Source: a virus (Duplodnaviria > Caudoviricetes). Taken from it: a stretch of 64,000 bases of DNA. Below, piece after piece: positions 4,523-40,191 of this stretch. Position numbers and translations under genes: made by a program. The DNA is taken from positions 1 through 64,000 of the IMG/VR virus record IMGVR_UViG_3300021255_000040. One strand, 5' to 3'. Position 1 is the stretch's first letter, and the number at the start of each line of letters is the position of its first letter. The notes under the pieces are model-generated. The model made no database searches, was not told the origin of the DNA, and was given only the letters and a program-made list of their open reading frames with translations.

Positions 4523-7500
4523 TTATGTAAAGTATGTCATTACTATATCATGTATCTCCACCTTTTTATCAGTATCAGCATCCTTCTGAAGTTTCAGATA
4601 GAGCCAAGGATTCCTCATTCTGTCTACAGGATGCTGCTTGGTTCTTGATACTCCAAGAGCTGCATCACCAGACAGAGGAGCATTGTCTCTTGGAATATCA
4701 CATCTCCAGATTCTAAACTTCCTCTTCAGAGAAGCCTTATTATCGAGAGTATGATGTTTCATGGCTGCATGACCGTTCTTAATATCAAGTTTAGCCAACC
4801 CATGCTGATACTCATTCCAAGTTTCCAAAGAGTCAAAGGGCAGGTAGAAGTTGAACTTGCCTGCATTTGTTTGCTCACCATCTCCTTCTACACATGCCCT
4901 AAACTCAAGGTTAGTGAATATCTTGTCCAACTGTGGCTCAGGATTTCCTACAAGAGTCATACCATAAGGCCTGTGACCATCATAATCTTCCGTACTAAAG
5001 AAATCACAATACTCTCCTGCCTGATGCTCCCATAGCTTTTGATTTTTAATCCAGATGCCTACATCATCCAAATTACAGAACCAGGGAGTATTACCATAGT
5101 CATAAAAACTGATAAAAGCTCCTACCTTTTCTGAGTAAGCAAGGGCAATGTCCTTATTAATGTAAAGCACATCTTGATTCTTCTTGTCATAGTAACCTAC
5201 AAAGTTATTGAACTCATCAGGAGTCCATTTAATATTACCTGCGGGAATATGTTGCTTACACCAAGCATTAAACCCTCCTTGCTGAGATATGTTCTGTAGT
5301 CCTTCTCCTAACTTATAGATACTTTTTTCATTTGAGTCCATGAAATAGATACCTGCTGGAGTATTAACCACTGACCATTTATTAGAACAGCCTACAGTAT
5401 CACTCAAATATCTCTTACCTTGCACCTTACCACTGTTAGCAATCTCAATGGGAACACCCTCTGTAGTAGAAATTTGTGTATTCTCATTATAAAGTATTTG
5501 ACTAATACCTTGGTCTTGGAAACATATCAACTGGTCATTAAGTCTTTGCAATGAGGTCACACTACCCTTATTTCCATCTAGTTCAAGTGTACTTGCCAGC
5601 GTAACATTATTCCACATGTCAATATCAGCATTAGATGCTTTAGTCTTTGACCATGTTATCTGATTAGGATAACTGTTGTTCTTATAGACATCATCATCTT
5701 GAATCCTATAAGTAAAGAAATTATCCAACTGACTATATACTGGATTCAACAAATTAAAGTTCTGAGGACTCATATTGAGATTATTACTCTGACCTCTATT
5801 TCTGTCATATCTGCCATCTATATTAACATGTGTCTCCAACATGAAGCTGCCAATCTCCACTATCTGATTAATATCCTCACGGGTAAATGCATAGGTCTTC
5901 AAGCAGTCATATCTTTGGAAATATGTATCTCCATAGTCATAGTAGAAATTCAGTATCTTATAATCTTTACCCTCAATTGTTTCTTTTTCCGTATTATTTA
6001 AAGATACAGGAATACCACAAGGCAACCATTTATTTTCTCTGAATGCATCAGCAGATCTACCACCAAAGCGTGTTGATGTATTAGTGACTTTCTGTATTTC
6101 AAAAATTGCCAACTGATTATTATTTTCAATAATACTAGTGTATGGATATACAACCAAATGAGGAGTAGACTTGTATTTCATTCTTACTGGAGATTTTCTA
6201 ATATCAAGATCTACAAACTCATCACCAATATCATCTCCTCCCCAAACCCATTGGTAAATGTCATGAGTTTCCTCTGCAAATGGATCATAATATTTTCCTA
6301 CCCATTTTCTTATACCATTTTGATTTTGCTGTTCTGCATCTTTAGAAAATGCTTTTAGCCAGTTATTTGAAATAAAGGAGGTAGGAGCATCAGTGTAATT
6401 CCAAGCCCAACTATCACCTGACCAAGGATGTTTCCATACAATTACACCATCCAATGCAAAATATTTACCATCAGCATTATCTGGCATAAGTAATGTATCA
6501 ATATTACCTTTGTATATTTTATCGTCAATCTTTAAAATAGTGTCTTCCTCACCTGAAAATAACTGAGGGTAGGTATTGAAATTATATCCCCAACCTCTAT
6601 TATTCCAATCATAAAGATTTGTAGTAGCATATCTTAAATTAGAAATCATTTTCTTTTTCAAGACAGCAGTAGCATTACCTTTACTAGAAGGCCTATTCAT
6701 ATCATTATTAAGAGAGCCATTACTTTGCCAAGGGTATACCAACCACTTTGCAGCAGCTCTTTCATGTGGATATGCTCCTAAATGATTGTCTTCTCCAAGA
6801 CAGTCATCCACAATATAATCATCATAAAATAGTCCCGATATAATACCAGCAGCCCCCTCTGAAGTAAATGCTCTGTGTACAAAGCCAGATCCAGAGTTAC
6901 TAACTGTAGGGGATTCTGTTTGAATGTCAATATCTGACATAGTATGAGTGAAATCTACCACTCCTACTTGATTATAACTGGTTCCTATAAAATCTAGTAC
7001 CTGAAGTTGATCATCAAATTCAATATCAGGAGAATGAAGCGTTCTAAATTGAGTATCAATTCTAAATTTATTATCACTTTCAAAGTCCCCTTCAATCTCC
7101 ACTTTCCTTATTCTCTGTGGATCGTATGAACCCTTGCTATCATCTGGAAAATGATACTCAATATTTCTCTGTGTATATTCAAGTAAGTTCCTACTTTTAG
7201 GATTATTAGTTGTATCTGTCACAGCATCATCTGCTGATTGATAGGGTCTAAAAAACCATGAAGACTGTGCATAAATGTTTTTATCATTAATTCTTTGTGT
7301 ATTAGTATATACAGTAGGATTAACTACTCCTTGGCATATAACATCTCTATCCATCATGTCAGGGAATACTACAACAGGTCTTATTTTTCTGTATCCTGCG
7401 TTTATTAAACTATCAAATAAAGGATACCAACCTCCTTGTTTTTCTACAGCTAATTTACCTTTGATAATAGGAACTTTAATATAGCTACCTTCATCCTTTG

Positions 7501-25942: not shown

Positions 25943-26185
25943 CTAAGGTAAAGGAACGTGCTCAAGTTTACCTATTCTATCTAAGCATAACCCTTCCCTA
26001 ATGGCTTTATCTAATTCTAAAAGAGTATAGGCACTACAAATCATGCTTACATTTCCTGTAGTTACTTTATATAACATACTAATACCATATACTCTAGTCA
26101 CTTGGAATAGAGGCTTTCTTTCTATATTAAGTTTAGATAAAGCCTCTTCAATGTCTTTTAAAGATAACTGATTATAATTATCCAT
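25943..26185 (-). CDS. Hypothetical protein
   Basis: 80 aa ORF abutting its neighbours. Confidence 0.45.
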   Translation of the reverse strand: MDNYNQLSLKDIEEALSKLNIERKPLFQVTRVYGISMLYKVTTGNVSMICSAYTLLELDKAIREGLCLDRIGKLEHVPLP

Positions 26186-26186
26186 A

Positions 26187-26738
26187 CTAGTCTATCCCAA
26201 TGTCACCAATAGTAAGTTCCTGAGTACCCCTTGCTTTACCATTCTCCACAATTTCTTGCTCAACCTTTTTCTGAAGAGTTTGAATGGTATTGACAATACC
26301 CTCAAGATTCTTTAAGGCAGAAGTAATCTGAGAAACATTATACTTAGCTCTGCCTTTATCATCCTCTTCTGTAAGGTCAACTGTTCTGAGAAAAGTTCCC
26401 ACAGTATTGGCTGCAACCAATGCATCATTGAGCAGTTTCTGAGATACAGTGATAGTATGCTTCTTATATACCTCCATTGCTTCTAACAGAAACTCAGATG
26501 GCTTGAAGTCCTTAGGCAGTCCCTCTTGTTCTATAATAGCCTGACTCCTTTCATCCTCATCCATAATATAGGAATAAGTGCTTCTGGGGTCTGTCATAAA
26601 ATAAAGGTAACTCATCTGCCTCCAGAACTGTTCCTTCCTTTCACTTCTGTCAGCATTGAATATCCTCCTAATTGGCCTCAATAAAAAAGCTTCATCTGCT
26701 AGCTTTATTTGGTAGTCTTCGTATCTGATAAGCTTCAT
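26187..26738 (-). CDS. Conserved crAss protein (possible small terminase)
   Basis: 183 aa; 'YLYF..DPRS.Y', 'D..GR..Y', helical; near terL. The TerS role is inference only. Confidence 0.5.
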   Translation of the reverse strand: MKLIRYEDYQIKLADEAFLLRPIRRIFNADRSERKEQFWRQMSYLYFMTDPRSTYSYIMDEDERSQAIIEQEGLPKDFKPSEFLLEAMEVYKKHTITVSQKLLNDALVAANTVGTFLRTVDLTEEDDKGRAKYNVSQITSALKNLEGIVNTIQTLQKKVEQEIVENGKARGTQELTIGDIGID

Positions 26739-26739
26739 G

Positions 26740-27108
26740 TTATAAAGTAATTATATGATTAAACGTGCCATCTACAAACTTTTCATAGGCAAAATCTCCT
26801 TTACCAAATCTGAGAAGCTCAAACAGGTATTTTAATACATTCATATCAAATTTATGTGCCTCTTCTTCTTTTTTAGGAAAAAGGTCTTTAGTCATCTTAT
26901 GACGTACCCTTAAGACAGGATAGTCATGGTCTTCATCTACAAAGAAATGTACAAACACCTCCCATATTACATCCCCATCCTCATTAAAAGAATATGCAGA
27001 GTGGGAAAAATGTCCTTTAGTTTCCACTCCTCTCCGCTGCCTTTCGAGATTGAGGTTTGAGTTTACAATATCTAAAATATCACTTAATGTGTACATACTA
27101 ATTTTCAT
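26740..27108 (-). CDS. Hypothetical protein
   Basis: 122 aa ORF in operon. Confidence 0.5.
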   Translation of the reverse strand: MKISMYTLSDILDIVNSNLNLERQRRGVETKGHFSHSAYSFNEDGDVIWEVFVHFFVDEDHDYPVLRVRHKMTKDLFPKKEEEAHKFDMNVLKYLFELLRFGKGDFAYEKFVDGTFNHIITL

Positions 27109-27173
27109 TTAAAACTAAAAAGACCTAGGCCATCACAGCCTAGGCCACCTCTCCTAAAAACAATCTTCTACCT

Positions 27174-27599
27174 TTAATTACCTAATATAAGTTTTTTCTT
27201 CTCAGGGATGATAATACTCTCATTAACCTCTTCACCTTCAAACACAAATTGAATGTCTCTGTCAGTCAAAAGCAAGCAATCACTGGTATTTCCCTTCTCA
27301 TCTGTTACAGGAACAGTGGGAATATTAATACTTAGAGTGGGGTTATTATCCATATCATTCTGTACAGAGTCCTTACTATATTTCTTCCGCACATAGGCGA
27401 TAGGATTAATCATCACCATATCACCAACCTTGATGTCCCTTACAGCAGAACCTACAGCCAATACCTTTTGATACAACTTAAGGTCTCCCTTTTTCTGGTC
27501 TTGCTGGATAATACCTCCAACAGTAACATCTTTCTCAAACTTATCACCTGTTGTAACAATAGAGGTGAATAGTGGCTTAATTGTCTTTATCTTTAACAT
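27174..27599 (-). CDS. GroES-like co-chaperonin
   Basis: 'IKPLF..IV', 'GGII', 'VLAVG..V..IKVGD.V' GroES-fold motifs. Confidence 0.65.
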   Translation of the reverse strand: MLKIKTIKPLFTSIVTTGDKFEKDVTVGGIIQQDQKKGDLKLYQKVLAVGSAVRDIKVGDMVMINPIAYVRKKYSKDSVQNDMDNNPTLSINIPTVPVTDEKGNTSDCLLLTDRDIQFVFEGEEVNESIIIPEKKKLILGN

Positions 27600-27888
27600 T
27601 GTTATCCTGTTTTTTATTTATATGTTCTAAATAATTCTTGTAATGATTGGCATGATGCCTCTTCATTCTATGATACCTGTCAAGAGTAACATGCAACTTA
27701 CCTATAGATGGAATATTAATGTTTGGCTTAAGCTTCTCAAATTCCTCATCTGTCAGGTCTTCCTTCATAGGCAAGGATGCTATGTACTGCTTGATGGCTC
27801 TCCAGTATGCTTTGTAAGTTTTGTCCACCAGTCTTTCAGAAAGACCAGTCTCAACAGCAACTCTAGATATAATCTCCTCATAGACCAT
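27577..27888 (-). CDS. Hypothetical protein (HU/IHF-like)
   Basis: 103 aa; 'II..VA.ETGLS...V', 'INIPSIGKL'. Confidence 0.5.
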   Translation of the reverse strand: MVYEEIISRVAVETGLSERLVDKTYKAYWRAIKQYIASLPMKEDLTDEEFEKLKPNINIPSIGKLHVTLDRYHRMKRHHANHYKNYLEHINKKQDNNVKDKDN

Positions 27889-27892
27889 TACC

Positions 27893-28339
27893 TTATACTT
27901 CTCCTTTAAACTGTATCAAGAGTCTGAATATTCCATTGTCATCCTGTCTGACATTGGGAATCAGCTGGGGATGAATAATGTCATCCTTCAAAACCCCCTT
28001 TCTTTTCAATGCACTCTTGATGACATAGAAGTGCTGGGCTGTAATACCACACTCCTCAATCACATCCTGCTTAACCTTATCACTCTTCATCAAAATATCA
28101 AGATGTGCAGGGTCTTTAGTGTCTTTAGATAACTCCCATCTCTGTTTTAGAAGACTGGCAATAACATCAGTTTCCTTATCTGTAAGGCTGATAAATGGTC
28201 TGAGAAAGATACACCACCACTTGAAAAAAGCAATGCTGGATGCACAATCAACATTGAACATGTTGTTGGGCTTAGGCATGGTAATAGTCTTCTTCTTACC
28301 TTCCTGCTCTGACTGCTTGGGTACTGTACTGTTCTCCAT
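27893..28339 (-). CDS. Hypothetical winged-helix-like protein
   Basis: 148 aa; 'LT.KE.DV', 'I...GI...F..I...L..KG'. Confidence 0.5.
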   Translation of the reverse strand: MENSTVPKQSEQEGKKKTITMPKPNNMFNVDCASSIAFFKWWCIFLRPFISLTDKETDVIASLLKQRWELSKDTKDPAHLDILMKSDKVKQDVIEECGITAQHFYVIKSALKRKGVLKDDIIHPQLIPNVRQDDNGIFRLLIQFKGEV

Positions 28340-28340
28340 A

Positions 28341-28721
28341 TTACTTCTCCTTATTCTCTTCTTCTTTCTGTTCTGGAATAGTCAGTGCTTCCTGAATCTC
28401 CTTAAGACACTCCTCAACAAATACACTGTCAAAACAAGGATAGTCTGAAACTCTGTAGTTATTAGCAATCTCCACTACCTTGAACAAATACTCCATTCTC
28501 TTGTTAGTGAAGTACTGCTCTGCCTCACCAAGCTGCTTTCTCAGTCCCTTGATATAGTTATCCTGATTATACAATTGCTGATTCATCTGGATAACCTGCT
28601 GAACCAATTGCTCCTTAGACCATTTCTGAAGCTCATCCTGAATAGAACCCTCTGTACCTTTACCCTCAGGGTTAGTAACTGGTTTCATCTTCACTTCCTT
28701 ACTTCCAATCTCTTTCTCCAT
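28341..28721 (-). CDS. Hypothetical coiled-coil protein
   Basis: 126 aa; 'KRM.YLFKVVE'. Confidence 0.55.
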   Translation of the reverse strand: MEKEIGSKEVKMKPVTNPEGKGTEGSIQDELQKWSKEQLVQQVIQMNQQLYNQDNYIKGLRKQLGEAEQYFTNKRMEYLFKVVEIANNYRVSDYPCFDSVFVEECLKEIQEALTIPEQKEEENKEK

Positions 28722-28726
28722 ACCTT

Positions 28727-29164
28727 TTAATATTTAAACAGTTTCAACAATAAAAATTTCAAATCATTAAGCTTATTCTCCTTGACTATGTGATGAAAGA
28801 AGAGAATAATAGCATCTGCCTTACTCAAACCTCCAGGGAATGAAGGATATATTGTCTTGATAACTTCCTTCCATTTGTCACTCTTATACACCTTGGTCTT
28901 CAGCTCTTCAATAGTCAGACCAAATATAAAAGTCTTCCTGGGATCTTCATTCTTTACGGCAAACTTATGTCCATATCTCTTCTCATACTTTTCTTCCCAT
29001 ATCTCTATAGGAGCCTCTGAGATGTCAGAACAGCCACAGTCACCACAGTATTCAGAGTCTAAAGTCTCATCATACTTGACCTTCAGTGAGTAACATCTGG
29101 AACAGTATTTTACTGGCTCAGAGTCATAGTCATTAAGTTCTCTTGTTTCTGGCATAGTGGACAT
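28727..29164 (-). CDS. Zn-ribbon protein
   Basis: 'EPV.YC.RC.SL', 'YC..CG...I'. Confidence 0.6.
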   Translation of the reverse strand: MSTMPETRELNDYDSEPVKYCSRCYSLKVKYDETLDSEYCGDCGCSDISEAPIEIWEEKYEKRYGHKFAVKNEDPRKTFIFGLTIEELKTKVYKSDKWKEVIKTIYPSFPGGLSKADAIILFFHHIVKENKLNDLKFLLLKLFKY

Positions 29165-29198
29165 CTATAAGTTACACCTTATTATATATAATAGGAAA

Positions 29199-29420
29199 TT
29201 ACTTCTTTCTACGTGTAACCCTGCCACCTGTGGACTTGATGTTAGCAGCACTCTTCATAGCATTGGCTCGCTTGGTCATATCATCAGCTTGCCTGTTTGC
29301 CTCCTTGATAGCCATGTTCATTCTTGACTTGTCACTCATAATCTCCTGATACCTCGCCATTGTGTGAGCATCATCCTGTGCTTGCCATTGCAAGTCCTGT
29401 TTCGACATCTTTGTTGCCAT
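29199..29420 (-). CDS. Small basic hypothetical protein
   Basis: 73 aa; TAnnTTTG element upstream at 29539-29546. Confidence 0.5.
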   Translation of the reverse strand: MATKMSKQDLQWQAQDDAHTMARYQEIMSDKSRMNMAIKEANRQADDMTKRANAMKSAANIKSTGGRVTRRKK

Positions 29421-29778
29421 AAGTCCTTAATATTTATTCTGTTATACTGAAAAACAATCTCAAAACCTTAAAGTAAAACTTGAACCATTAAACAGATACC
29501 ACTCTATTTCAGCAAGTTATACATCCTAAAACTTGTGGCAAAGATAAACAATATTGTTTAAACTTCCAAATAAAAACTCTAATTATTCCTTACTTTTAAT
29601 ATAAATTAAGGTTCTGATTCCCTCAACTCCACAAAAAATTACCTATCTTTGTACCCAGTTCATTCATCCTAAAAACAACTCGTTCTTTACAAATTATGTT
29701 CACTCACAACTCACCTCCATAACAGCCAACATGGAAAAGTCCTTTAAAATAAAGCACTTAGCAACCTTCCAAAGAGTA

Positions 29779-29806
29779 GGGGGTTCGAATCCCTCTCTCT
29801 CCGCCA
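29779..29806 (+). other. attP-like core: 3' end of a tRNA-Ser gene
   Basis: GGGGGTTCGAATCCCTCTCTCTCCGCCA = T-arm + acceptor strand + G discriminator + CCA with no tRNA 5' half; ~145 bp upstream of the integrase. Confidence 0.8.
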
Positions 29807-29950
29807 AATAGCACAAATGGGAAGGTTTAAAAGACTTTCCCATTTATTTTTGTACATAATCACATTACACATTATTTACACTCTAAAATTTCATTCTTTA
29901 CACTTTGGTGTTGTAAGCCCCTATTAACATCCTAAAAACAAAATTTAACA

Positions 29951-31102
29951 ATGAATAACAAAGTACCTCAAATAAATGTTGTGTTTGATAGAAGAAAAGT
30001 AGCCAGTCTCAGCAAGAAAGCTGCTGTAGAACTCAGAATAACCCACAATTATAAACAAAAGTGGATTAGCACAGGCATCATGCTATACTCTAATCAATGG
30101 AAAGATGGCAAGATTATCAACTGCTCAAACATATTGGAGATTAGTCAGACTCTGGAAACTCTTCTAACTGAAGTAAGGCAGGTTATCCTTGAGATGATTC
30201 AGAAGAATAACCTGAACATAATGACTATCTCTGATGAACTAGACAAAAAAAGACAGAGCAAAATATCATTCATTGATTTTTGCCATCAGAGAGTCTCTGT
30301 CAGGAAGTACAGGAAAAGTCAAGATACTAAAGAAAGATATGACAGGTTCATCAAGCACTTTGCTAAATGGGGTAAGATAAAAGAGTTTGAGGATATTAAT
30401 GATAAAAACATCATTGACTATGATAATTATCTGAAGGGATTCAAGCTAAAGTCTTGCAGTAAGTGGAATAACTACCACAGGTTCCTGAACAGTTTTATCA
30501 TAGATGCTGTTGCTGAAGGACATCTCAAGAGGAACCCTTATAAATGGATCAACGTGGATAGAAAGAAAAACAGCAAGGCAATAGAGAGGTGTCTTACTCC
30601 AGTAGAATTCCACAGACTTACTAGAACTAAGATGCCTACCCAGAGTATTGAAAGAGTTAAAGACTTGTTTATCTTTCAGACATACACCTGTCTCAGTTAC
30701 TCTGACCTCAAGGACTTTGATAGTAGAATGATTCAAGAGGTTAAAGGTATGAGTGTATATGTGGGCAGAAGAATCAAAACTACTATGACATTCACCATTC
30801 CCCTGCTGTCTCCAGCTCTTAACATTCTACATAAGTATGATGGCAGGTTGCCTATAATAAGTAATGTGAAATATAATGAGTATCTTAAGATAGTTGCTCA
30901 GACAGCAGGAATAGACAAGCCTATAAGTACCCATTGGGCAAGACATACAGGGGCTACTATATTACTAAATGAAGGAGTACCCATGCAGATTGTTTCAAAG
31001 ATATGTGGACATTCTTCCACCAAGATTACAGAGCAAGTGTATGCCAAACTCTTGGATGAAACAGTTGTAGAGGCTATTCAAGAAGTAGAAGATAAGATAT
31101 AA
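29951..31102 (+). CDS. int: Tyrosine integrase (Bacteroidales type: arm-binding + SAM-like + catalytic domains)
   Basis: 383 aa; N-terminal 'V.LRIT..Y....ISTG', 'F..YT.L.YSDL', 'H.ARHT.AT..LN.G', 'GHS...T...YAK'. Confidence 0.92.
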   Translation: MNNKVPQINVVFDRRKVASLSKKAAVELRITHNYKQKWISTGIMLYSNQWKDGKIINCSNILEISQTLETLLTEVRQVILEMIQKNNLNIMTISDELDKKRQSKISFIDFCHQRVSVRKYRKSQDTKERYDRFIKHFAKWGKIKEFEDINDKNIIDYDNYLKGFKLKSCSKWNNYHRFLNSFIIDAVAEGHLKRNPYKWINVDRKKNSKAIERCLTPVEFHRLTRTKMPTQSIERVKDLFIFQTYTCLSYSDLKDFDSRMIQEVKGMSVYVGRRIKTTMTFTIPLLSPALNILHKYDGRLPIISNVKYNEYLKIVAQTAGIDKPISTHWARHTGATILLNEGVPMQIVSKICGHSSTKITEQVYAKLLDETVVEAIQEVEDKI

Positions 31103-31171
31103 TAAATCCCTCTGACCTATCGCAGGCAAGAGGGACTGGCAATTGTAAATTTGCGTCAAAGAAAACAATTT

Positions 31172-31354
31172 TTATCTTATGGATTTTATCAAATACTCGA
31201 TCTTTAGGATTATCCAGATAGCCAAAGCTACTGGCCATAACATACAGGCTATATTGGCTGACTGGTGTTCTATCTCACCATCATCATTACTATATATAAA
31301 GCAATGTGCGGTTATAGCACCAAGGATATATACTATAGTAACAATCCACTCCAT
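31172..31354 (-). CDS. Small two-TM membrane protein
   Basis: 60 aa with two hydrophobic segments. Confidence 0.45.
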   Translation of the reverse strand: MEWIVTIVYILGAITAHCFIYSNDDGEIEHQSANIACMLWPVALAIWIILKIEYLIKSIR

Positions 31355-31357
31355 ACT

Positions 31358-31960
31358 CTACTTGATTATCTCGATATACTCAGAACTCTCATCTTCAACA
31401 TAAGGATTCTTCTCTTTAACATTAACTTTCACTACATAATGCTTTCGCTGAAACCATCTGAAAAGAAAGAACTTCTTAGGGGGATTAACAGTCTCCTTCT
31501 TACTGGAGACTACAATATGTTTCTCACTCTTAAAGTATGGTTGTATTGCAATCATAGAAGGATACTTAAGTCCTAGCCTGACATTGTACCACTTGTCTCC
31601 TATCAGAGTATCTATAGCCAGCGTAGGTTCCTTAAACAAGGTATCTCTCATGGTTATAGTATCTCTCTTGGTGAATCCTGATTTCACTGCCTGAAGAGCC
31701 TTCAGGTTCTTGTCTTTAATCTTCAGTTCCTTCCTTGTATTGTCAAGCTCCTGAAGGACAGAATCCTTGAAGTAGCCCAACTGGTCAACAGTTAGTTGCA
31801 AAGCTATGTTCTTCTCACCTTCTGCTGCTAATTGAGCATCATAGGCTTTCATATTAGCAGTAGCTACTTCCCACTTATCATTAGCATACTTCACCTGTTG
31901 CCACGTAGCACCTATGATAACTACCAAAACTACAATCGCTAAAATCAGATATTTTTTCAT
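31358..31960 (-). CDS. Membrane-anchored coiled-coil protein (spanin-like)
   Basis: Likely start 31960 (MKKYLILAIVVLVVIIG), N-terminal TM then coiled coil; own TAnnTTTG at 31980-31987. Confidence 0.55.
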   Translation of the reverse strand: MKKYLILAIVVLVVIIGATWQQVKYANDKWEVATANMKAYDAQLAAEGEKNIALQLTVDQLGYFKDSVLQELDNTRKELKIKDKNLKALQAVKSGFTKRDTITMRDTLFKEPTLAIDTLIGDKWYNVRLGLKYPSMIAIQPYFKSEKHIVVSSKKETVNPPKKFFLFRWFQRKHYVVKVNVKEKNPYVEDESSEYIEIIK

Positions 31961-32070
31961 ACTCTTCTTATTTTGGTTGCAAAGATAAGGAAGAATATTC
32001 TTGGAGCAAAGCATCTAAGGATTCTACTAAGACAAAAAGAAAGAGAGGACTGTAGAATCCTCTCTATCTA

Positions 32071-32159: not shown

Positions 32160-32526
32160 TCACAACAGCTTACTCTTTATATTGTTCTTGCTATAAAATT
32201 GTCTTATCTAAAAAGAAGAAAAGCCATAATAATTCCCTAACGGACTTTTCTAGACTCATCATTCTTGCATTTCCACTGGGCGGTCAGTATTCACTTAACT
32301 CGTAAGCTTTTTAACTCCCAAAAGTCCTTTTACCCTCAGCCTTTTTTCCATTGTAGTTTGGCAGGACACCAATATTATAACAAGAACTTTTTTGACCTAT
32401 CGGGGTTTGAGTAATCCTTTATCTCAGAGCTATGTGATATTTCTATCTGCTCTTACAACCCGACTTCTAATCCATATATACCTTCTGGCCTTTTGGATGA
32501 GCATGAGACTACAACTCTCAAGGGTC
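32160..32526 (-). ncRNA. Candidate large structured non-coding RNA
   Basis: No credible ORF; TAnnTTTG at 32531-32538; nested complementary segments (TTGTAGT/ACTACAA, GGACTTTT/AAAAGTCC, TCGGGTT/AACCCCGA, GATA-GAAA-TATC). Confidence 0.5.
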
Positions 32527-32651: not shown

Positions 32652-32981
32652 TTATATATAAGGTGTAAAGTCAAAGTCTTCTGTAATCTCTAACCAGTCC
32701 TCAAAGGTAACTCCTCCATATAGCTCAAAGTTAGCTACACACATCAACATGTAGTCTATACATTTATTGAAATTATCAAGGGGCTTGACATTCTTGAAGT
32801 ATACCATATTAGTCAAGAAGACCATATCTCCCAGAGTGGAACCAGTAACATTATAGTACACTTTCCTCTGGGCAGCTTTCTTGACCTTGTTGCCATTCCA
32901 TCTGCCTTCAGTAATACTCATAGCCAACTTCTCAGTGAAGTGTTTGCCATGTTTCTCCAAGTATGCTTCTAGTCCTTTCAT
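32652..32981 (-). CDS. Hypothetical protein, distant paralog of 34324..34740
   Basis: 'Y....G.HF..KL' and 'D....NM' shared. Confidence 0.6.
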   Translation of the reverse strand: MKGLEAYLEKHGKHFTEKLAMSITEGRWNGNKVKKAAQRKVYYNVTGSTLGDMVFLTNMVYFKNVKPLDNFNKCIDYMLMCVANFELYGGVTFEDWLEITEDFDFTPYI

Positions 32982-33720: not shown

Positions 33721-33930
33721 TTACTTATTAAGTGTTCTAAGCTCCACCATATTACTCAAGAGATTAGCTAGAACATTCCTGCCAAAGTCATTTTCATTCT
33801 CCTGATGGTGGTTAGCCAAGTACCTGTTGATAACATTGCATATCTGATGGAGCATGATGTTATTCTCATGTACCTCCTCTTGGATAGAGTCTAGAGTATC
33901 AAACAGGTAATCTTCGTCTTTTCTAGTCAT
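33721..33930 (-). CDS. Small helical protein (module gene 7)
   Basis: Likely start MTRKDED at 33930; 'ENN.ML..I', 'DFG.NVLAN'. Confidence 0.55.
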   Translation of the reverse strand: MTRKDEDYLFDTLDSIQEEVHENNIMLHQICNVINRYLANHHQENENDFGRNVLANLLSNMVELRTLNK

Positions 33931-34327
33931 AGGCTTTACAATTACAAACCATTTCACCAAATACATGGTACATCCTCTCTACCAGATGACCTATGGTGTA
34001 TGCAGGTGGTTCTCCTTCATCTTCTACATCATAAGCTGCTAGCATAGCTTGCTTAACATGCTCTGCCTCATGGACTATAGAGTTGATGTAATCTCTCTTT
34101 GACTCATGGGGATTAAACATTACTACACTGATATGCCAGTCTATATTATTATAGGTAGCAGCTTTTGCCTGACCTGATTTCAACATATCATAGGCTTCCT
34201 TGATAATTTCAGTAGAGGCTCCTGCATATATCAGCTCCTTGACTATACGGGCAAAAAGGTTAAAGTCCACATCATAGTAGACAATAACCTTCCAGTAACT
34301 TTCTATGTCAAACACCTGCTTAATCAT
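33923..34327 (-). CDS. Putative zincin-like metallopeptidase (module gene 6)
   Basis: 134 aa; 'SIVHEAEHV' HExxH plus downstream 'GEPPAY'. Confidence 0.6.
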   Translation of the reverse strand: MIKQVFDIESYWKVIVYYDVDFNLFARIVKELIYAGASTEIIKEAYDMLKSGQAKAATYNNIDWHISVVMFNPHESKRDYINSIVHEAEHVKQAMLAAYDVEDEGEPPAYTIGHLVERMYHVFGEMVCNCKAYD

Positions 34328-34740
34328 AGCATCTCATCCCAGTCTACAGGATTGTTCATAAACATAGTGTCTGCATAGAATCGGTTAAACACAAAACCTT
34401 CCTCTGCATCAGCATCATCAAGCAAATCCTGAACATACATCACCAGATGCTTCTCATCAGGGACTGACTTACCAAGGAAATCAGCTTGGCACATGTTTGC
34501 CACATAAGTAGCATCATACAGCTTATTTCTCTCAATCTTGATGTTATAGTTGGCAATCATAGCATCTACCTGTTCCTTGGTATAAGGCTTAATGTGCTCC
34601 TTTTTGCCACCATTATCCTTGTACATCTGGCTGACTGCCCAGTCACAAAGCTTCTTGTTGAAATGACAGCCATAGTTATTGATGTACTGCTTCATTCCCT
34701 CAGGTATCTCATCATAACTGCCTGTTCTTCTTTGATACAT
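34324..34740 (-). CDS. Hypothetical helical protein (module gene 5)
   Basis: 138 aa; 'YG.HFNKKLC.WAVS.M', 'YD..YVANM..AD', 'F.RFYAD', 'W.EM'. Confidence 0.7.
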   Translation of the reverse strand: MYQRRTGSYDEIPEGMKQYINNYGCHFNKKLCDWAVSQMYKDNGGKKEHIKPYTKEQVDAMIANYNIKIERNKLYDATYVANMCQADFLGKSVPDEKHLVMYVQDLLDDADAEEGFVFNRFYADTMFMNNPVDWDEML

Positions 34741-34805
34741 AGTCTTATCTCCTATAATTTAAAAGGGAGCATGGAGACTTCTCCACACTCCCTTCTTCTG
34801 ATTAA

Positions 34806-35021
34806 TTACATTCTGCCTCTACGATAGCCATATCTGCCAGGAATCATTTCATCCTCGTGATACTCATGACGATACATTCTACCACCACGATACTCTGCTT
34901 CATCAGCATAGTCACTATCTTCAAGACAATCACGGAACTCCTCAAGGAAGTCAATCATCTTTTCAATCTTGTGTGTAAACTTCTCCTTCTTTTCAGGAGT
35001 CATCTTATACATTATTACCAT
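34806..35021 (-). CDS. Small protein with Arg/Gly/Tyr-rich tail (module gene 4)
   Basis: 71 aa; helix followed by YRGGRMYR..GRYGYRRGRM. Confidence 0.6.
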   Translation of the reverse strand: MVIMYKMTPEKKEKFTHKIEKMIDFLEEFRDCLEDSDYADEAEYRGGRMYRHEYHEDEMIPGRYGYRRGRM

Positions 35022-35024
35022 AAC

Positions 35025-35516
35025 TTAAACTGCATTAGGTGTTTTCTGTTTAAGCAAAGACAGTATCTCTGCCATTTGACTCTGCATACCTTCTACCTGC
35101 CCCCTTAACTCTTTGACAACATTGTCATTGGCTGTGGCAGGATCAAGTTCATTGAGGGCTGCATCATACTGAGGAATCCTCTCTTGATGCATGGGAGCAC
35201 TGTCAATCACATTCTTACTCTCCTGGCGAAGAGACTTAATGTGGTTAGCCAGTGAATCCTTGCTATCAGATATTACCAGTGAGTCTGCTCCAAAGTCTGC
35301 CACAACATTGCTGTTAGGTACTTGCTGGAATTCTCTGCGCTCACCATTAATATTGGCTACTATATCAACAATATACTCAGGAATCTGACCAAAGGTATTC
35401 TGGTTAAACCTAGGTCTTGGCAATGATACACTCTCTACAGTAGCAGTGAAGAGCTTATTACCATTTTTCCTGTCAAGTCCATACAGGACACTGCCTTTAC
35501 TTAAATTTGAAAACAT
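35025..35516 (-). CDS. Hypothetical protein, beta domain + coiled coil (module gene 3)
   Basis: 163 aa; 'MFSNL.KG..LY.L' start. Confidence 0.7.
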   Translation of the reverse strand: MFSNLSKGSVLYGLDRKNGNKLFTATVESVSLPRPRFNQNTFGQIPEYIVDIVANINGERREFQQVPNSNVVADFGADSLVISDSKDSLANHIKSLRQESKNVIDSAPMHQERIPQYDAALNELDPATANDNVVKELRGQVEGMQSQMAEILSLLKQKTPNAV

Positions 35517-35518
35517 AA

Positions 35519-35950
35519 TTAATTACTCTTTTTTACGGTTCTCATTGAATTGTTAGTCTCTTCAGTACTAGAAGTATTCTGAGTTGTAGCAGCAGCTGGA
35601 CCAGTGGTCATCAACTGAAGTAGGTTACAGCTCTTATCATAATAGATAAAGTAGATGCCTGCACCAGTCAGCTGTTCTGCTGTAGCTGCTGTACCTCCAA
35701 CCAAAGTCAGAGGCTGGGTAAACTCATTGGATGCAAATAGAATGGGAAGAGTGCCTGCACTCTCAGGGAGAGCAGTATTAAGTCTGAATAATATAACTCC
35801 ATTATTGTTCAACATCCTGAATGCCCTGCGAGGGATACCAATCACCACATCATTTGTATTGACTGTGACATTGGCACTCTCAATCATAGGAAATCCAAAC
35901 CTGTTGGCAAAGTTGAAGGGATAATTAGTTGTTGCTCCAAACATATTCAT
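35519..35950 (-). CDS. Hypothetical beta-rich protein (module gene 2)
   Basis: 143 aa; 'PF.F.NR.G.P', 'TLPILF', 'GIY..YYD'. Confidence 0.7.
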   Translation of the reverse strand: MNMFGATTNYPFNFANRFGFPMIESANVTVNTNDVVIGIPRRAFRMLNNNGVILFRLNTALPESAGTLPILFASNEFTQPLTLVGGTAATAEQLTGAGIYFIYYDKSCNLLQLMTTGPAAATTQNTSSTEETNNSMRTVKKSN

Positions 35951-35963
35951 ATCCTCCTATATT

Positions 35964-36911
35964 TTAGTTAAAGAAACCTGTCTGCTGACCCATACCATAG
36001 CCATAGTAACCTCCTACATAAGGAGTAGCATTGGCTGCGATTATGTTAGGCCACTGTACTGGAACTGTGTTAGGCTGCTTAGCAGCAATAGCATCAATCT
36101 TGTCATCAAGAGCATGGAAAGCTGCATTGAACTGGAGAGTCTGCTTGTCATTACTAATCTGATTCCTCAACTGAGTGATAATATCACCCTGAGTATCAAT
36201 CTTAGACTGCAACTCACGCTCCTTCAAAGCACAGAACTCTGATACAATCATAGCATTCTGGTCAGCAATAGCCTTTACAATAGTATTGGTATTACCATCA
36301 GCCTGACGTGTCAGAGTATTAGTCTGCTGACATACTAAAAGCTGGTCAGCTGCTTCATTCTGGGCAAGCTGCAACCTTACAGATGCATCATGAGCAGCCA
36401 GTGAAGTCTGAAGAGCATTGGTCTGGTTAGCAATAGCCAGTCTGTTCTCACAGCAGCACTCACAGATTTGTCTGCTCAGATTAGCATTACCCAACTGAAG
36501 AGCATTGATAGTCTCAAGACCACTCATACCTACCTGAGCACCTACATTCTGAATAGCAGATTGGAGAGTGAACAGATTAGTCTTTACAGTCTCAATACTA
36601 GAATGAGTCAGATTAGCAAGCTGTCCCAGTGCATCTGCACGACCATTAATAGCCTGGAGCAGCAAATCCCTACCAGCATCATTGTTCAGCTGATTAGCAA
36701 GGAAGCCTGTGCCATTATTACCACCAAAGCCATTGCCCCAGCCATTACCACCATATCCCCACATCATCCAGAGGAATAAAATCCAAATCCAGTTACCATT
36801 GCCTCCAAAGCCACCATTCTGGTTAAGCAGGGCCAACAGTCCAGGATCAATACCATTTACTGCACTCTTAGTAGCAGCATCTGGAAAAACATAAACACCT
36901 TCTTGTGCCAT
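35964..36911 (-). CDS. Gly-rich hydrophobic-segment + long coiled-coil protein with CECCC motif (module gene 1)
   Basis: 315 aa; GGFGGNGNWIWILFLWMMWGYGGNGWG, heptads, 'ICECCCENR'; TAnnTTTG at 36976-36983. Confidence 0.75.
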   Translation of the reverse strand: MAQEGVYVFPDAATKSAVNGIDPGLLALLNQNGGFGGNGNWIWILFLWMMWGYGGNGWGNGFGGNNGTGFLANQLNNDAGRDLLLQAINGRADALGQLANLTHSSIETVKTNLFTLQSAIQNVGAQVGMSGLETINALQLGNANLSRQICECCCENRLAIANQTNALQTSLAAHDASVRLQLAQNEAADQLLVCQQTNTLTRQADGNTNTIVKAIADQNAMIVSEFCALKERELQSKIDTQGDIITQLRNQISNDKQTLQFNAAFHALDDKIDAIAAKQPNTVPVQWPNIIAANATPYVGGYYGYGMGQQTGFFN

Positions 36912-37076
36912 AGTTTAAAACCTTTCTTTTTTAATTAATTAAACATTAACTTTACTTTTATCACTAGTGATGGTGCAAAGTTACGAGGTATCCTATGACT
37001 TTTCAAACGATGCTTGTAGACAACAAAAAACCACTAACCCTCAATGAGTTAGTGGCTGAAAACATTACCTACTTTG

Positions 37077-37469
37077 TTATTCCTTCAGTCTAATCAACAA
37101 TACTTTCATTATACCCTCATCAGATAAGTCCTTCCAAGTGTACCTTAGAACAGTAACATCAGGGTAATGGTCTTGGATATTCCTAGTTCTCTGCTTATCA
37201 TGTTGACTATGGTGATCATGATACCTCTTACCATCTACCTCTATAATAATTCTCCTGTCTGGAATATAAAAGTCGGCTATATAATACCTTGTTATCCAAC
37301 CATCATCAGCAGTGATGTAAAATATCTTCTGGAACTCATATTGGATATAGTGCCTATCTAGAAAAGCTATCATCCTTTCCTCTAGAGGAGAAGGCCAAGT
37401 TTTCATTTCATTAGCCCTAGATTCAGCCTTGCTTCTTACCTCCTTATTATGTGCCTGTTTGTTACTCAT
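37077..37469 (-). CDS. DUF559/Vsr-like PD-(D/E)XK endonuclease
   Basis: 'YIADFY.P...IIEVDG..H....D..R......VLR'. Confidence 0.8.
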   Translation of the reverse strand: MSNKQAHNKEVRSKAESRANEMKTWPSPLEERMIAFLDRHYIQYEFQKIFYITADDGWITRYYIADFYIPDRRIIIEVDGKRYHDHHSQHDKQRTRNIQDHYPDVTVLRYTWKDLSDEGIMKVLLIRLKE

Positions 37470-37578
37470 CTTATCTTTATTTTTTAGGCAAAGGTAACAA
37501 AGAGTCTCTAAGACATACTACATATAATAAAAGGTATAAGATGGGATTAGGGACAAGTGATATTTTTTAAAATCAATT

Positions 37579-37669
37579 GTATGTGTAAAAGGGAGATATT
37601 ATGGCAAAATGTTGGGTATGTGTCAAAGAGTGATATTTAAAATTGAAAGTATGTGTATAAACGGGATAT
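37579..37669. repeat. Three GTATGTGT-N8-GATAT direct repeats at the strand switch
   Basis: Copies at 37579-37599, 37616-37636, 37649-37669. Confidence 0.75.
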
Positions 37670-37823
37670 AATACCACACACCACCCCCACCTGATTTTGG
37701 ATTGGGGATATACCCCCGCCCTAACTGAGGAGATTCCACCGTCTCCAATGTTAGCAGTATTAACCAGGTGGGAGCTAAGCCTCTGCTCTGATAGGCTCAC
37801 AGTCCTGAGAGGGATTTACCACT

Positions 37824-38141
37824 ATGACACAGAACAACAGTAACAACAACCAGGGAATCATCAACAGCTGGTCACTCATTGCCTTCGCAAGAAGTCATGG
37901 GAAGATGCAAGTCGGTGAGTTTGCAAACAAGGAGACTGGAGAGGTCTTCAAGAGTTGCATCTTCACTGACCCAGCTGGTGACAGATGCTTCGTGGCATTC
38001 AGCTCCAAGATGGGTGAACTGACCCCAAGAGAGATTGCTGCCATGAAGGATGAACTTCAGGTGGTTCAGCTGGAGTCAGGCAACTTCAGCCTGTGCAAGC
38101 AGGGTCAGAATGCCTGGGAGGATGTTGACCTTGGCCTGTAA
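37824..38141 (+). CDS. Early hypothetical protein, copy 1
   Basis: 105 aa; collinear paralog of 39606..39920 (SWSL.AFA.SHGKMQVG.F.NKETGE.FKSCIFT). Confidence 0.8.
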   Translation: MTQNNSNNNQGIINSWSLIAFARSHGKMQVGEFANKETGEVFKSCIFTDPAGDRCFVAFSSKMGELTPREIAAMKDELQVVQLESGNFSLCKQGQNAWEDVDLGL

Positions 38142-38272
38142 GAGGGAGAAATGGGGAGAGTGTGACAGGCTCTCCCCTTCCTTTCTTTTCTTTTCAAGAG
38201 AAACACCGCAGAACCTGCAAGCACAATAAAAAGAAAATTTTATAAGGTCAACATTGGAATTAGCTTTTTCAG

Positions 38273-38301
38273 TATTCAAGGGAGACAGCACCATTCCTAT
38301 A
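38273..38301 (+). promoter_or_regulatory. Conserved 29-bp motif, copy A (candidate phage promoter)
   Basis: TATTCAAGGGAGACAGCACCATTCCTATA; aligns with copies at 39433 and 53910. Confidence 0.6.
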
Positions 38302-38305
38302 TCTT

Positions 38306-38412
38306 GGCAGGAAAGTCCTTGCTGTTGGGAGTCAAACCAGTGACACTAATCCCCCAACATTACTAATCCAATGTCACTGGGGAGCAGATTGGCCATCTGC
38401 TCTACTTTTTTT
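38306..38412 (+). ncRNA. Candidate pseudoknotted small RNA with intrinsic terminator
   Basis: TGTTGGG(38323-29)/CCCAACA(38353-59) interleaved with CCAGTGACA(38337-45)/TGTCACTGG(38372-80); hairpin GAGCAGAT/ATCTGCTC followed by a T-run. Confidence 0.55.
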
Positions 38413-38439
38413 TGAAATATTAACTAAAACCCAGATAAT

Positions 38440-38697
38440 ATGAAGAAGATTTATAAAGGTGAATGGTGCTATAGTTCATCCACACCTAATAGGACTGAGA
38501 GAATCAAGTCTCATAAGGAATTTGAGGCAAGTGACTTAAAGAAGATGCTTGATGAAGGTTGGCAGGTTAAGGTAACTAAACCTAAGAGACCTAGAATCAA
38601 GAGAGAATCTTTTAAGGTTATCATCACTTGTTTTGGGCCTATGAAGATTACTATTGAAGAGTATAATCAGCATTGTAAGGACTTTAAAACTCTATGA
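38440..38697 (+). CDS. Hypothetical early protein
   Basis: 85 aa ORF with A-rich leader. Confidence 0.5.
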   Translation: MKKIYKGEWCYSSSTPNRTERIKSHKEFEASDLKKMLDEGWQVKVTKPKRPRIKRESFKVIITCFGPMKITIEEYNQHCKDFKTL

Positions 38698-38836
38698 TAT
38701 GTATAAGGTATTTGATTCTCTAGGGAAGCTGGTTAGAGCTGGCTTCTCTACTTACCTTGATGCATTTAATTATAAGTGTGCATTTGGTAATTCAGGTTGG
38801 TATATTTCTCATTAAATATAATAAGGTATGGGATAC

Positions 38837-38980
38837 ATGAGTAAAAAAGATATGGTTGCCTTACTTTTACAGGCAAGAAATATTCTCCACAAGCAGGAAA
38901 ATGGCGAAGAGGTTCTCCCTCAAGACATAACTCTGGCACATGACTATGTTGATATGGTCATTGATGATTTGATAAAATAG
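38837..38980 (+). CDS. Small hypothetical protein (47 aa)
   Basis: MSKKDMVALLLQARNILHKQ...; followed by a hairpin. Confidence 0.4.
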   Translation: MSKKDMVALLLQARNILHKQENGEEVLPQDITLAHDYVDMVIDDLIK

Positions 38981-39107
38981 GAGTTGGGCTTCACTTGTAG
39001 AAGCTCTTCTTCTTTATTATATTGCTATTAGGCAGATACTTCTTCTTCTCTTTCTATCTTTTTTTATTATATTTTTATTATCTTTGCAGCATTAAAACAA
39101 TATAACT

Positions 39108-39287
39108 ATGGTAATACTTGGAATTCTCATTGCTTGTTGTGTTTGTTGGGTTACTGTATTTATAGCCCTCAACTTCTATTATGATACTATAAGCAAGAAT
39201 AAACCTAAAAGCATAACCTTGAGGGTAACTCTCATTAGCTTTTTCATCATGATCAGCTTGTTGTCTTTAGGTTATTGCTCTCACTAA
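39108..39287 (+). CDS. Small two-TM membrane protein (59 aa)
   Basis: MVILGILIACCVCWVTVFIAL..TLISFFIMISLLSLGYCSH; TATCTTTG at 39079-39086. Confidence 0.5.
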   Translation: MVILGILIACCVCWVTVFIALNFYYDTISKNKPKSITLRVTLISFFIMISLLSLGYCSH

Positions 39288-39432
39288 TATATAATAGTAC
39301 ACGTACATTATATTATATTAGGTAGGTCAAAGGCCACACACCACATTAGCTTTTGGCTTACCTTTTTCTTTCTTTTATATTTCTTTCTTTTTGTAAGTAA
39401 AGCAAGATGAAGAAGCTTTAGAGCTTTATAAA

Positions 39433-39461
39433 TAGTCAAGCGACACATCACCACTCCTATA
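39433..39461 (+). promoter_or_regulatory. Conserved 29-bp motif, copy B
   Basis: TAGTCAAGCGACACATCACCACTCCTATA, upstream of 39606. Confidence 0.6.
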
Positions 39462-39605
39462 TTTTGGAGAGATAGAGAGAAGTTGGGTAAATCTAGCTAA
39501 TCTTATATTTCTACCAAGTTTTAGGGTCTGAGAGGGTTTGCTGTCCTTGATGATTTATGTTAGTATTGCAGCACATACAGGACAATTAGGGGCCTGAATT
39601 ACACT

Positions 39606-39920
39606 ATGGCTAATACAGCTCAGAACGTAGGTATTAAGAACAGTTGGTCACTTCTGGCATTTGCTAAGTCTCATGGCAAGATGCAGGTGGGAGATTTTGT
39701 CAACAAGGAAACTGGTGAGGCTTTTAAGTCTTGTATTTTCACCAATCCTGAGGATAACAGCCGCTGCTTTGTTGCTTTCTCCAGCAAAATGGGAGAACTG
39801 TCTCCCCGTGAGATTATGGAGCAGAAGGATAACCTCCAGGTTGTAGAACTGGAGAGTGGTAACTTCTCACTCTGTAAGCAGGGTGCAAATGCTTGGGAAG
39901 ATGTGGAGTTGGGTCTTTAA
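39606..39920 (+). CDS. Early hypothetical protein, copy 2
   Basis: 104 aa paralog of 37824..38141. Confidence 0.8.
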   Translation: MANTAQNVGIKNSWSLLAFAKSHGKMQVGDFVNKETGEAFKSCIFTNPEDNSRCFVAFSSKMGELSPREIMEQKDNLQVVELESGNFSLCKQGANAWEDVELGL

Positions 39921-40191
39921 TAGACTCAGCTTTCCCTCTTAACAGGACAAGCTAATTAACTGTGTTATAAGTGGTATGTGTGTAGAGATTGCAGGTTATT
40001 CCCCCTCCTAGAGCTGATAAGACTTCCAACTCTACACACTTTTTCAATTATCCATTTTAACATTGCATTCTTTACTCTCCAAGATAGTTGCACATACTCA
40101 ACTATGTGCCTCTTGCTATCTATCTTTTTTATTTAGCTTTAGGCACTTAGATTACATTTTACTTCTTTAAAACCTTAAAACATTACAAATT

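Follow-up and report, generated by a model that had tools for sequence, protein, structure and literature searches.

The first 64 kb (64,000 nucleotides, the window) of IMG/VR record IMGVR_UViG_3300021255_000040, a complete virus record of 123,180 bp with direct terminal repeats, carry on the minus strand a cassette of six genes, g1 to g6, that is conserved in considerably more than 100 contigs of gut phages. We tentatively favor the reading, to which we give somewhat less than an even chance, that the cassette is a late accessory fiber-like virion module of Bacteroidales phages. The genome is crAss-like: it encodes a crAss-type major capsid protein (MCP) (phrog_11589, E = 3e-97), a large terminase (phrog_6681, E = 3e-111) and homologues of crAss001 gp27 and gp31 (47% identity). 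Public sequencing runs containing this phage are mostly from bovine gut.

An earlier reading of the letters alone (the sequence-only reading) had described seven tightly packed genes behind a host-type promoter. All seven open reading frames (ORFs) are present, on the minus strand; they are named g1 to g7 in the order of transcription, and the term cassette is used for g1 to g6. From g1 to g7 they are separated by gaps of 13, 2, 3 and 65 bp and then joined by two overlaps. The features are:

37029-37057, minus strand: terminator-like hairpin, a 12-pair stem followed by a T run, which terminates the DUF559 endonuclease gene upstream and marks the boundary of the cassette
36976-36983, minus strand: candidate cassette promoter with the Bacteroides-type -7 box TAACTTTG, found by pattern matching in the 165 bp between g1 and the gene upstream
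35964-36911, minus strand: g1, 315 aa, phrog_16490 (function unknown)
35519-35950, minus strand: g2, 143 aa, predicted beta-sandwich core of ~111 aa with a Thr/Ser-rich tail, the putative exchangeable unit
35025-35516, minus strand: g3, 163 aa, predicted N-terminal beta-like domain and C-terminal heptad helices, phrog_28898
34806-35021, minus strand: g4, 71 aa, N-terminal helix, acidic middle and basic R/G/Y tail
34324-34740, minus strand: g5, 138 aa, Pfam DUF7841 (PF25223), phrog_38431
33923-34327, minus strand: g6, 134 aa, minimal zincin with HEAEH and a Glu 16 residues downstream
33721-33966, minus strand: g7, 81 aa, a neighbor in this genome outside the conserved cassette

Conservation and genomic setting

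A search of IMG/VR seeded with g1 yielded 36 crAss-type loci (clade 1). The cassette was also found in C3_41T2LP (OR296439), a cultured non-crAss phage of Bacteroides uniformis, in which it lies beside recombination genes; a search seeded with g1 of this phage gave more than 570 matching stretches, of which 80 loci were kept and profiled (clade 2, the C3_41T2LP type). The 36 clade-1 loci have the same order, g1-g2-g3-(g4)-g5-g6. Five of the genes (g1, g2, g3, g5 and g6) are detectable with hidden Markov models (HMMs), and in clade 2 these lie on one strand and in one order, g1 and g3 being present in 80 of the 80 loci, g5 in 79, g6 in 77 and g2 in 75. The sequence-only reading had recommended a gene-neighborhood search for co-conservation and order; over both clades it found all five genes in 96 of 117 loci, and many of the others are cut contigs. 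Even distant members at 31% identity keep the layout. Of the undescribed multi-protein unit that had been supposed, g1 to g6 hold together, co-occurring in one order in two clades, and g7 drops out: in 9 loci its homologues were located either 1-2 kb upstream of g1 or at other places, never directly after g6, and in relatives it is not linked to the cassette.

The cassette was not found in crAss001, crAss002 and DAC15 and is therefore accessory. Most carriers are crAss-type contigs of ~90-110 kb with the cassette among late genes, and in many crass genomes it stands between the terminase or lysis genes and the capsid gene. In cr273_1 it is two genes away from the endolysin; in cr116_1 it follows the holin and carboxypeptidase genes by ~1 kb; in L027 it directly precedes a gp27-like gene with a transmembrane (TM) segment and coiled coil, a small gene and an Amidase_2 endolysin; and in L107 a weak lysozyme-like gene precedes it by ~1 kb. 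Elsewhere in clade 2 it is found downstream of tape-measure, tail, tail-fiber, diversity-generating retroelement (DGR) or lectin genes. The positions that the sequence-only reading gave the cassette, outside the morphogenesis block and near the integrase (at 2.6 kb), are correct for this genome; the second is particular to it, and the first fails for the many relatives with the cassette between terminase or lysis genes and capsid gene.

A small helix-turn-helix (HTH) gene often lies just upstream of g1, from different families in the two clades; at this place the present genome has a DUF559/Vsr-like endonuclease gene (37077-37469) with its own terminator. The g1 profile had no match in 401 evenly sampled Bacteroidota genomes, a sample that does not prove absence.

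In some relatives DGRs lie just upstream of the cassette (L027 4660-6468; L076 3333-4622). The one in L027 has a 136-nt repeat pair (77% identity, copies at 4660-4795 and 4918-5053) ahead of the reverse transcriptase (5224-6468). That it targets the cassette was considered and rejected, the first repeat copy lying in the end of the upstream 691-aa protein. Many loci (L079, L082-L090, L033, L034 and others) have an insertion of ~0.7-0.8 kb between g1 and g2, which in L107 (10001-10639) encodes an ORF of 212 aa on the opposite strand; the insertion may be a mobile endonuclease gene.

Exchange of the g1 tail together with g2

The clade-1 cassette is strongly mosaic. Among 24 dereplicated clade-1 loci the identity of g2 tracks that of g1 residues 279-315 (rho 0.43) and neither that of the adjacent g1 coil (rho -0.04) nor that of g3 (rho -0.03), despite g3 starting only a few bases after g2. 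g3, g5 and g6 co-vary with each other in clade 1 (rho 0.46-0.61), independently of the g2 type. The class of the g1 C-terminus pairs with the type of g2 in 24 of 24 clade-1 loci: the partner of an NYPFNF-type g2 is a g1 ending in ...FWN or ...FFN, that of an MNCC-type g2 a g1 ending in ...G-x-(I/V)-(I/V)-(F/L), and that of an MAKFPYQY-type g2 a g1 ending in ...SYWG. Clade 2 shows the same pairing of g1 tail and g2 type, with Cys-rich tails, as judged by eye. A peptide of the RiPP class (ribosomally synthesized and post-translationally modified) or a toxin-immunity pair, made of the g1 tail and g2, was rejected as an explanation, there being no toxin-sized variable domain.

The g2 protein, described as beta-rich in the sequence-only reading, was modeled by AlphaFold2 as an eight-strand beta-sandwich (mean predicted local distance difference test score, pLDDT, 76.6). 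Its best match in the PDB, a weak one, is bead III of the tail fiber gp47 of Pseudomonas phage Pa193 (Z 4.9, rmsd 3.9, 97 residues). In BFVD the top matches are homologues in crAss-like and other uncultured phages, followed at E values of 1e-4 to 1e-2 by tail-fiber, hyaluronidase-fiber, T7-type, collagen-like and receptor-binding proteins. The g2 fold also matches part of a 294-aa BFVD protein named "DUF7841 domain-containing protein," a match suggestive of a fusion between a g2-like and a g5-like domain. The ESM Atlas returned only unnamed viral clusters or no match for g2 and g3, and hhalign detected no internal homology between g2 and g3 or between g3 and g1.

The g1 protein

g1 consists of an N-terminal leader, an aromatic hydrophobic core flanked by Gly and Asn (approximately residues 31-70), small helices, a long helix, the motif KQPNTVPV and a variable Gly/Tyr tail. 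The AlphaFold model (mean pLDDT 69.5) has a helix at 41-51, small helices at 69-126 and a single helix at 133-278 with pLDDT above 90. The Gly/Trp-rich hydrophobic segment, the long helix and the CECCC cluster pointed out in the sequence-only reading are all there; CECCC occupies residues 150-154, and among 68 diverse homologues (30-60% identical) its CCC reaches a conservation of at least 90%, as do several Gly/Asn positions. The same reading had taken the hydrophobic segment for a membrane segment, of which the hydrophobic core stands and the membrane insertion does not. The core, WIWILFLWMMW, spans 11-13 residues between Gly/Asn/Trp runs and shows no charge asymmetry, and in the family the Kyte-Doolittle maximum over 19 residues has a median of 1.43, versus 2.37 for the true TM segment of the gene at 31358-32014. 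Membrane insertion of g1 is thus not established, because the core is too short and too weakly hydrophobic for a confident TM helix. The C-terminus is a Gly/Tyr(/Cys) tail without a hydrophobic stretch, so that g1 has no C-terminal transmembrane anchor.

Against residues 10-90 of influenza HA2 (fusion-peptide end and helix A) the profile built from the 68 homologues gave E values of 0.009-0.2 (best match 18.5 bits at E 0.009, profile positions 48-133), and it also weakly matches HR1 of coronavirus S2. The fusion-like look that g1 had been credited with is therefore real at the level of weak profile matches and is not significant. For g1, VIA-align gave tied matches at Z 7-8 to nothing but generic long helices, among others those of reovirus sigma1 and phiX174 H, and Foldseek of the g1 model against the PDB found no match. 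The weak HA2/S2 and generic long-helix matches are no evidence of homology. Such matches are likely the reason why g1-like proteins are labeled "spike protein/glycoprotein" or "outer capsid protein/viral fiber" in GenBank.

In one metagenome protein of 568 aa, P0271 (L130 36-1742), the N-terminal ~205 residues are those of a g1 homologue, up to and including CECCC and CQQTN, and a tape-measure-like coil follows (phrog_4211, E 4e-5). P0271 is represented by one sequence on a contig of 2.2 kb and could be chimeric.

The proteins g3 to g6

By sequence, g3 would combine an N-terminal beta-like part with a C-terminal heptad coil, and g5 would be helical. The layout of g4 (helix, acidic middle, R/G/Y tail) is kept in both clades despite low identity, in agreement with the RGG/Tyr-type tail described in the sequence-only reading. 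g5 matches Pfam DUF7841 (PF25223) with 94.8 bits (cut-off 25.2) over profile positions 2-113 of 114; a scan of the genome collection with g5 gave one weak partial match, and longer fused forms of g5 were not found in this work. Outside the cassette a gene for a stand-alone DUF7841-like paralogue of g5 (109 aa) lies at 32652-32981 on the minus strand; it has 19% identity to g5 and matches DUF7841 with E 0.0014, below the cut-off.

The HExxH peptidase motif assigned to g6 is fully conserved: H86, E87, H90 and E106 are invariant in 26 sequences, giving HExxH and a Glu 16 residues on. The best Pfam match, MPTase-PolyVal (PF18818), is weak (14 bits, below the 27.5-bit cut-off), and the g6 homologue of phage C3_41T2LP is annotated as a PolyVal metallopeptidase. 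Like MPTase-PolyVal, g6 has HExxH...E; in contrast to it, g6-type proteins stand alone at ~100-155 aa and are not domains of a giant protein. In cr116_1 (L002) the gene gp021 (VOG3488, 115 aa; 5348-5695), just upstream of g1, encodes HECLH followed by DEVDAYL; its product resembles a zincin of the g6 type, which would here precede the cassette and not follow it.

Inspection of the sequences of g2 to g7 revealed no signal peptide or lipobox, which for g2 to g6 is expected of proteins assembled in the cytoplasm.

Library searches

The cassette DNA has no match among GenBank phages, and g1 to g6 have no function-assigning match in Pfam, PHROG, NCBIfam, PADLOC or the PDB sequences. Sequence and profile searches of the PDB with g1 to g3, g5 and g6 returned only coiled-coil noise; g1, g2 and g3 belong by sequence to no known fiber, collar or tail-fiber-assembly family in Pfam, PHROG, NCBIfam or the PDB. 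The PADLOC defense models gave two matches, both at chance level (E 0.003 and 0.015), and NCBIfam nothing usable. The profiles of g1 to g6 were also run against all ORFs of the late half of crAss001 and of the present genome; apart from g10, no remote paralogue was found. The literature searched (the cassette, DUF7841, phage C3_41T2LP and "spike" labels in crAss papers) holds no description of the cassette; its members are catalogued only as function-unknown PHROGs, as a single Pfam DUF and under loose labels in GenBank. The idea of a scaffolding protein was rejected on two grounds, the accessory nature of the cassette and, in clade 2, its great distance from the capsid gene.

The crAss001 gp27 homologue of the present phage (31358-32014, 47% identity) has a weak DUF6549 match and a strong N-terminal TM segment, and a gp28-like gene lies at ~107,500-107,760, ~75 kb away from it. 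Neither an Amidase_2 nor a VanY endolysin was found in this genome; its lysis genes are therefore scattered.

Expression

Four relatives that read TAG as Gln (L010, L012, L020 and L001, the latter being cr273_1) have in-frame TAG at Gln positions in g1, g3, g5 and g6. In-frame TAG is also present in their endolysin, terminase and neighboring genes, and in g2 of none of the four; in cr273_1 the TAG-bearing cassette genes share a block with endolysin and terminase. In crAss-like phages TAG recoding is mostly confined to late genes (Yutin et al., PMC7886860). Translation of the cassette in the recoded relatives consequently needs a late suppressor context. On the main codon-usage axis of the present genome MCP is the extreme (rank 135 of 135) and g1 stands among the structural genes (rank 131 of 135).

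In the RNA-library run X5 a contig of 2,596 nt with 100% identity spans 34365-36960, from g1 through most of g5, and in two studies the contigs stop at the same position, 36960, which is 16 nt downstream of the TAACTTTG box; the flanks 26000-32000 and 37208-40000 are uncovered in runs X5 and X6. Such contigs give neither strand nor true level, their depth being a weak measure, and they therefore show only that the cassette occurs as one piece in RNA libraries, with a 5' end fitting the predicted promoter. By itself the motif shows no enrichment in the window (81 occurrences versus 67 expected). The host-type promoter proposed to head the unit is thus backed by the box, the hairpin upstream of it and the common contig end. 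Recoding, codon usage and RNA contigs point to an expression of the cassette that is late and high.

Favored reading and alternatives

As a fiber-like module the cassette would be horizontally mobile and build an appendage traveling with the virion. The stalk would be g1, probably as an oligomeric coiled coil, and from the single helix of 146 residues a length of ~22 nm is calculated. The last ~20-35 residues of g1 would form with g2 an exchangeable distal unit, whereas g3, g5 and g6 (with g4 between them), as a second co-varying set, would anchor, assemble or mature the structure, the g6 zincin being the putative processing enzyme. The Gly/aromatic core near the N-terminus of g1 could be either the virion-buried end or a membrane-active tip.

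The g1 tail and g2 pattern resembles the swapping of a fiber tip with its adhesin or chaperone. In T4 (gp37-gp38), lambda (Stf-Tfa), Mu (S-U) and P2 (H-G) the C-terminus of the fiber is exchanged together with a downstream adhesin/chaperone gene. The cassette has in common with these modules a conserved proximal part, a variable distal end exchanged with the next gene, late expression, a place near tail or lysis genes and, in g2, a weak likeness of fold. It differs from them in that the g1 stalk is alpha-helical, with a CCC cluster and a Gly/aromatic N-terminal segment, in that four further conserved genes including a zincin belong to it, in that it has no fiber/Tfa sequence match and in that its virion location is putative. 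The fiber guessed at in the sequence-only reading thus gains some support from the g2 fold and the co-swapping of g1 tail and g2, and none from matches to fiber families.

Several points weigh against a fiber. None of the cassette members is linked by sequence to a known fiber, decoration or chaperone family, and the g2 fold match is weak (Z <5); since BFVD is rich in fiber proteins, the enrichment of these among the g2 matches may be partly trivial. The g1 tail and g2 are adjacent on the DNA, and their perfect pairing could be linkage, with recombination at the stretches coding for KQPNTVPV and MFSNLS. A strongly hydrophobic Trp/Phe/Met core would be unusual in an external fiber, and the cassette often adjoins lysis genes. 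The analysis shows co-conservation, a late gene setting, the presence of the cassette as one piece in RNA libraries, the motifs and the swapping; from these we infer the virion location, the oligomeric state, the contact between g1 and g2, any proteolysis and the binding target of the fiber.

The vicinity of lysis genes in L027, cr273_1, cr116_1 and L107 raises the question whether the cassette is a late membrane-associated accessory of lysis or egress, in which g1, with its core in the inner membrane, would act as a spanin or XhlA-type helper regulated by the other proteins. Like such helpers g1 has an N-terminal hydrophobic segment followed by a coiled coil and is often encoded beside holin/endolysin genes; its helix has about the length of the periplasm's width, and the weak profile match to fusion proteins would fit a spanin-like action. 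We nevertheless consider this unlikely. There is no lipoprotein or exported partner, neither an N-terminal hydrophobic signal nor a lipobox in g1 to g7, no signal peptide in g2 to g6 and no XhlA match in Pfam at E up to 0.1, the g1 core is short and without charge asymmetry, and an MCP-like codon usage and diversifying g2 swaps are untypical of lysis helpers. Moreover, the cassette is absent from propagable crass phages, crAss001 retains a gp27/gp28/gp30 lysis set of its own without carrying the cassette, and the present phage has a separate gp27 homologue (31358-32014) and a gp28-like gene (~107.5 kb). Late and high expression and the lack of signal peptides would also suit an internal ejection set of the pilot or tape-measure type, from which packaged g1 would exit via the tail and insert its Gly/aromatic segment into the host envelope, the g6 zincin being co-delivered as proposed for the peptidase domains of polyvalent proteins. 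With its Gly-rich hydrophobic segment ahead of a long helix, g1 is reminiscent of protein H of phiX174 and of tape-measure proteins, P0271 joins the N-terminal half of g1 to a tape-measure-like C-terminal half, and g6 is closest to MPTase-PolyVal. On the other hand, the match to phiX174 H (4jpp, Z 7.2) is no better than that to any long helix, P0271 is one sequence on one 2.2-kb contig and possibly an assembly chimera, and an internal protein would leave the swapping of the g1 tail with g2 and the fiber-like g2 fold unexplained, so that we rate an ejection set as quite unlikely.

A bolder form of membrane insertion, and a very unlikely one, is that of a virion-borne device built like a class I fusion protein. 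g6 would remove the leader of g1 and thereby expose a fusion-peptide-like, Gly/Trp-rich segment on one end of a coiled-coil trimer, and g2 would be the exchangeable receptor-binding unit at the other end. In class I fusion proteins (HA2, S2 HR1) and in the P22 gp26 needle, as in g1, a Gly/aromatic peptide precedes long heptad helices. Unlike the fusion proteins, g1 has no C-terminal membrane anchor and no demonstrated second heptad region, its hydrophobic segment lies behind a leader of 30-40 residues, and the E values are not significant; as for the P22 needle, carriers of the cassette include tape-measure phages, which need no needle. Least probable of the readings weighed here is a cargo for superinfection exclusion, anti-defense or lysogenic conversion, expressed from a host-type promoter near the integrase. 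In the present genome, where the integrase is 2.6 kb away, the cassette has a promoter and a terminator of its own; many relatives have a small HTH gene just upstream of g1; the cassette is covered in two RNA libraries in which its neighbors are not, and its mosaic variability would suit an arms-race function. Exclusion and lysogenic conversion, both offered in the sequence-only reading, are disfavored by the in-frame TAG of the recoded relatives, with its need of a late suppressor context, and by the lack of a g1 match in the 401 sampled Bacteroidota genomes; further arguments against such a cargo are PADLOC matches not exceeding chance and the ~90-110-kb crAss-type carriers with the cassette among late genes. 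The remaining probability belongs to explanations beyond these readings.

Significance

In public gut data the g1 family comprises more than 7,200 clusters at 90% identity (683 at 50%), yet none of the cassette genes has been assigned a function. If the cassette is an exchangeable fiber/adhesin unit, it is a portable determinant of host range or attachment and could help in understanding how these phages, which are very hard to culture, switch hosts at the strain level. Were it the fusion-like device, gut Bacteroidales phages would carry a portable, primed module for envelope penetration. Since the carrier C3_41T2LP is in culture, the question of what the cassette does is directly testable.

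Other RNA-covered stretches of the window

Between the gene of the g5 paralogue (32652-32981) and that of tRNA-Met, the ORF-free stretch 32279-32512 is covered, without mismatches, by RNA-library contigs of two studies (32279-32512 in run X5, 32279-32507 in run X6). It is preceded by TACCTTTG at 32538-32531 and fits a candidate non-coding RNA. By far the highest contig depth (~320, from the two bovine-gut RNA libraries X9 and X10) is found at 39543-40000, where the second copy of a duplicated plus-strand gene for a protein of ~104 aa is located (39606-39920).

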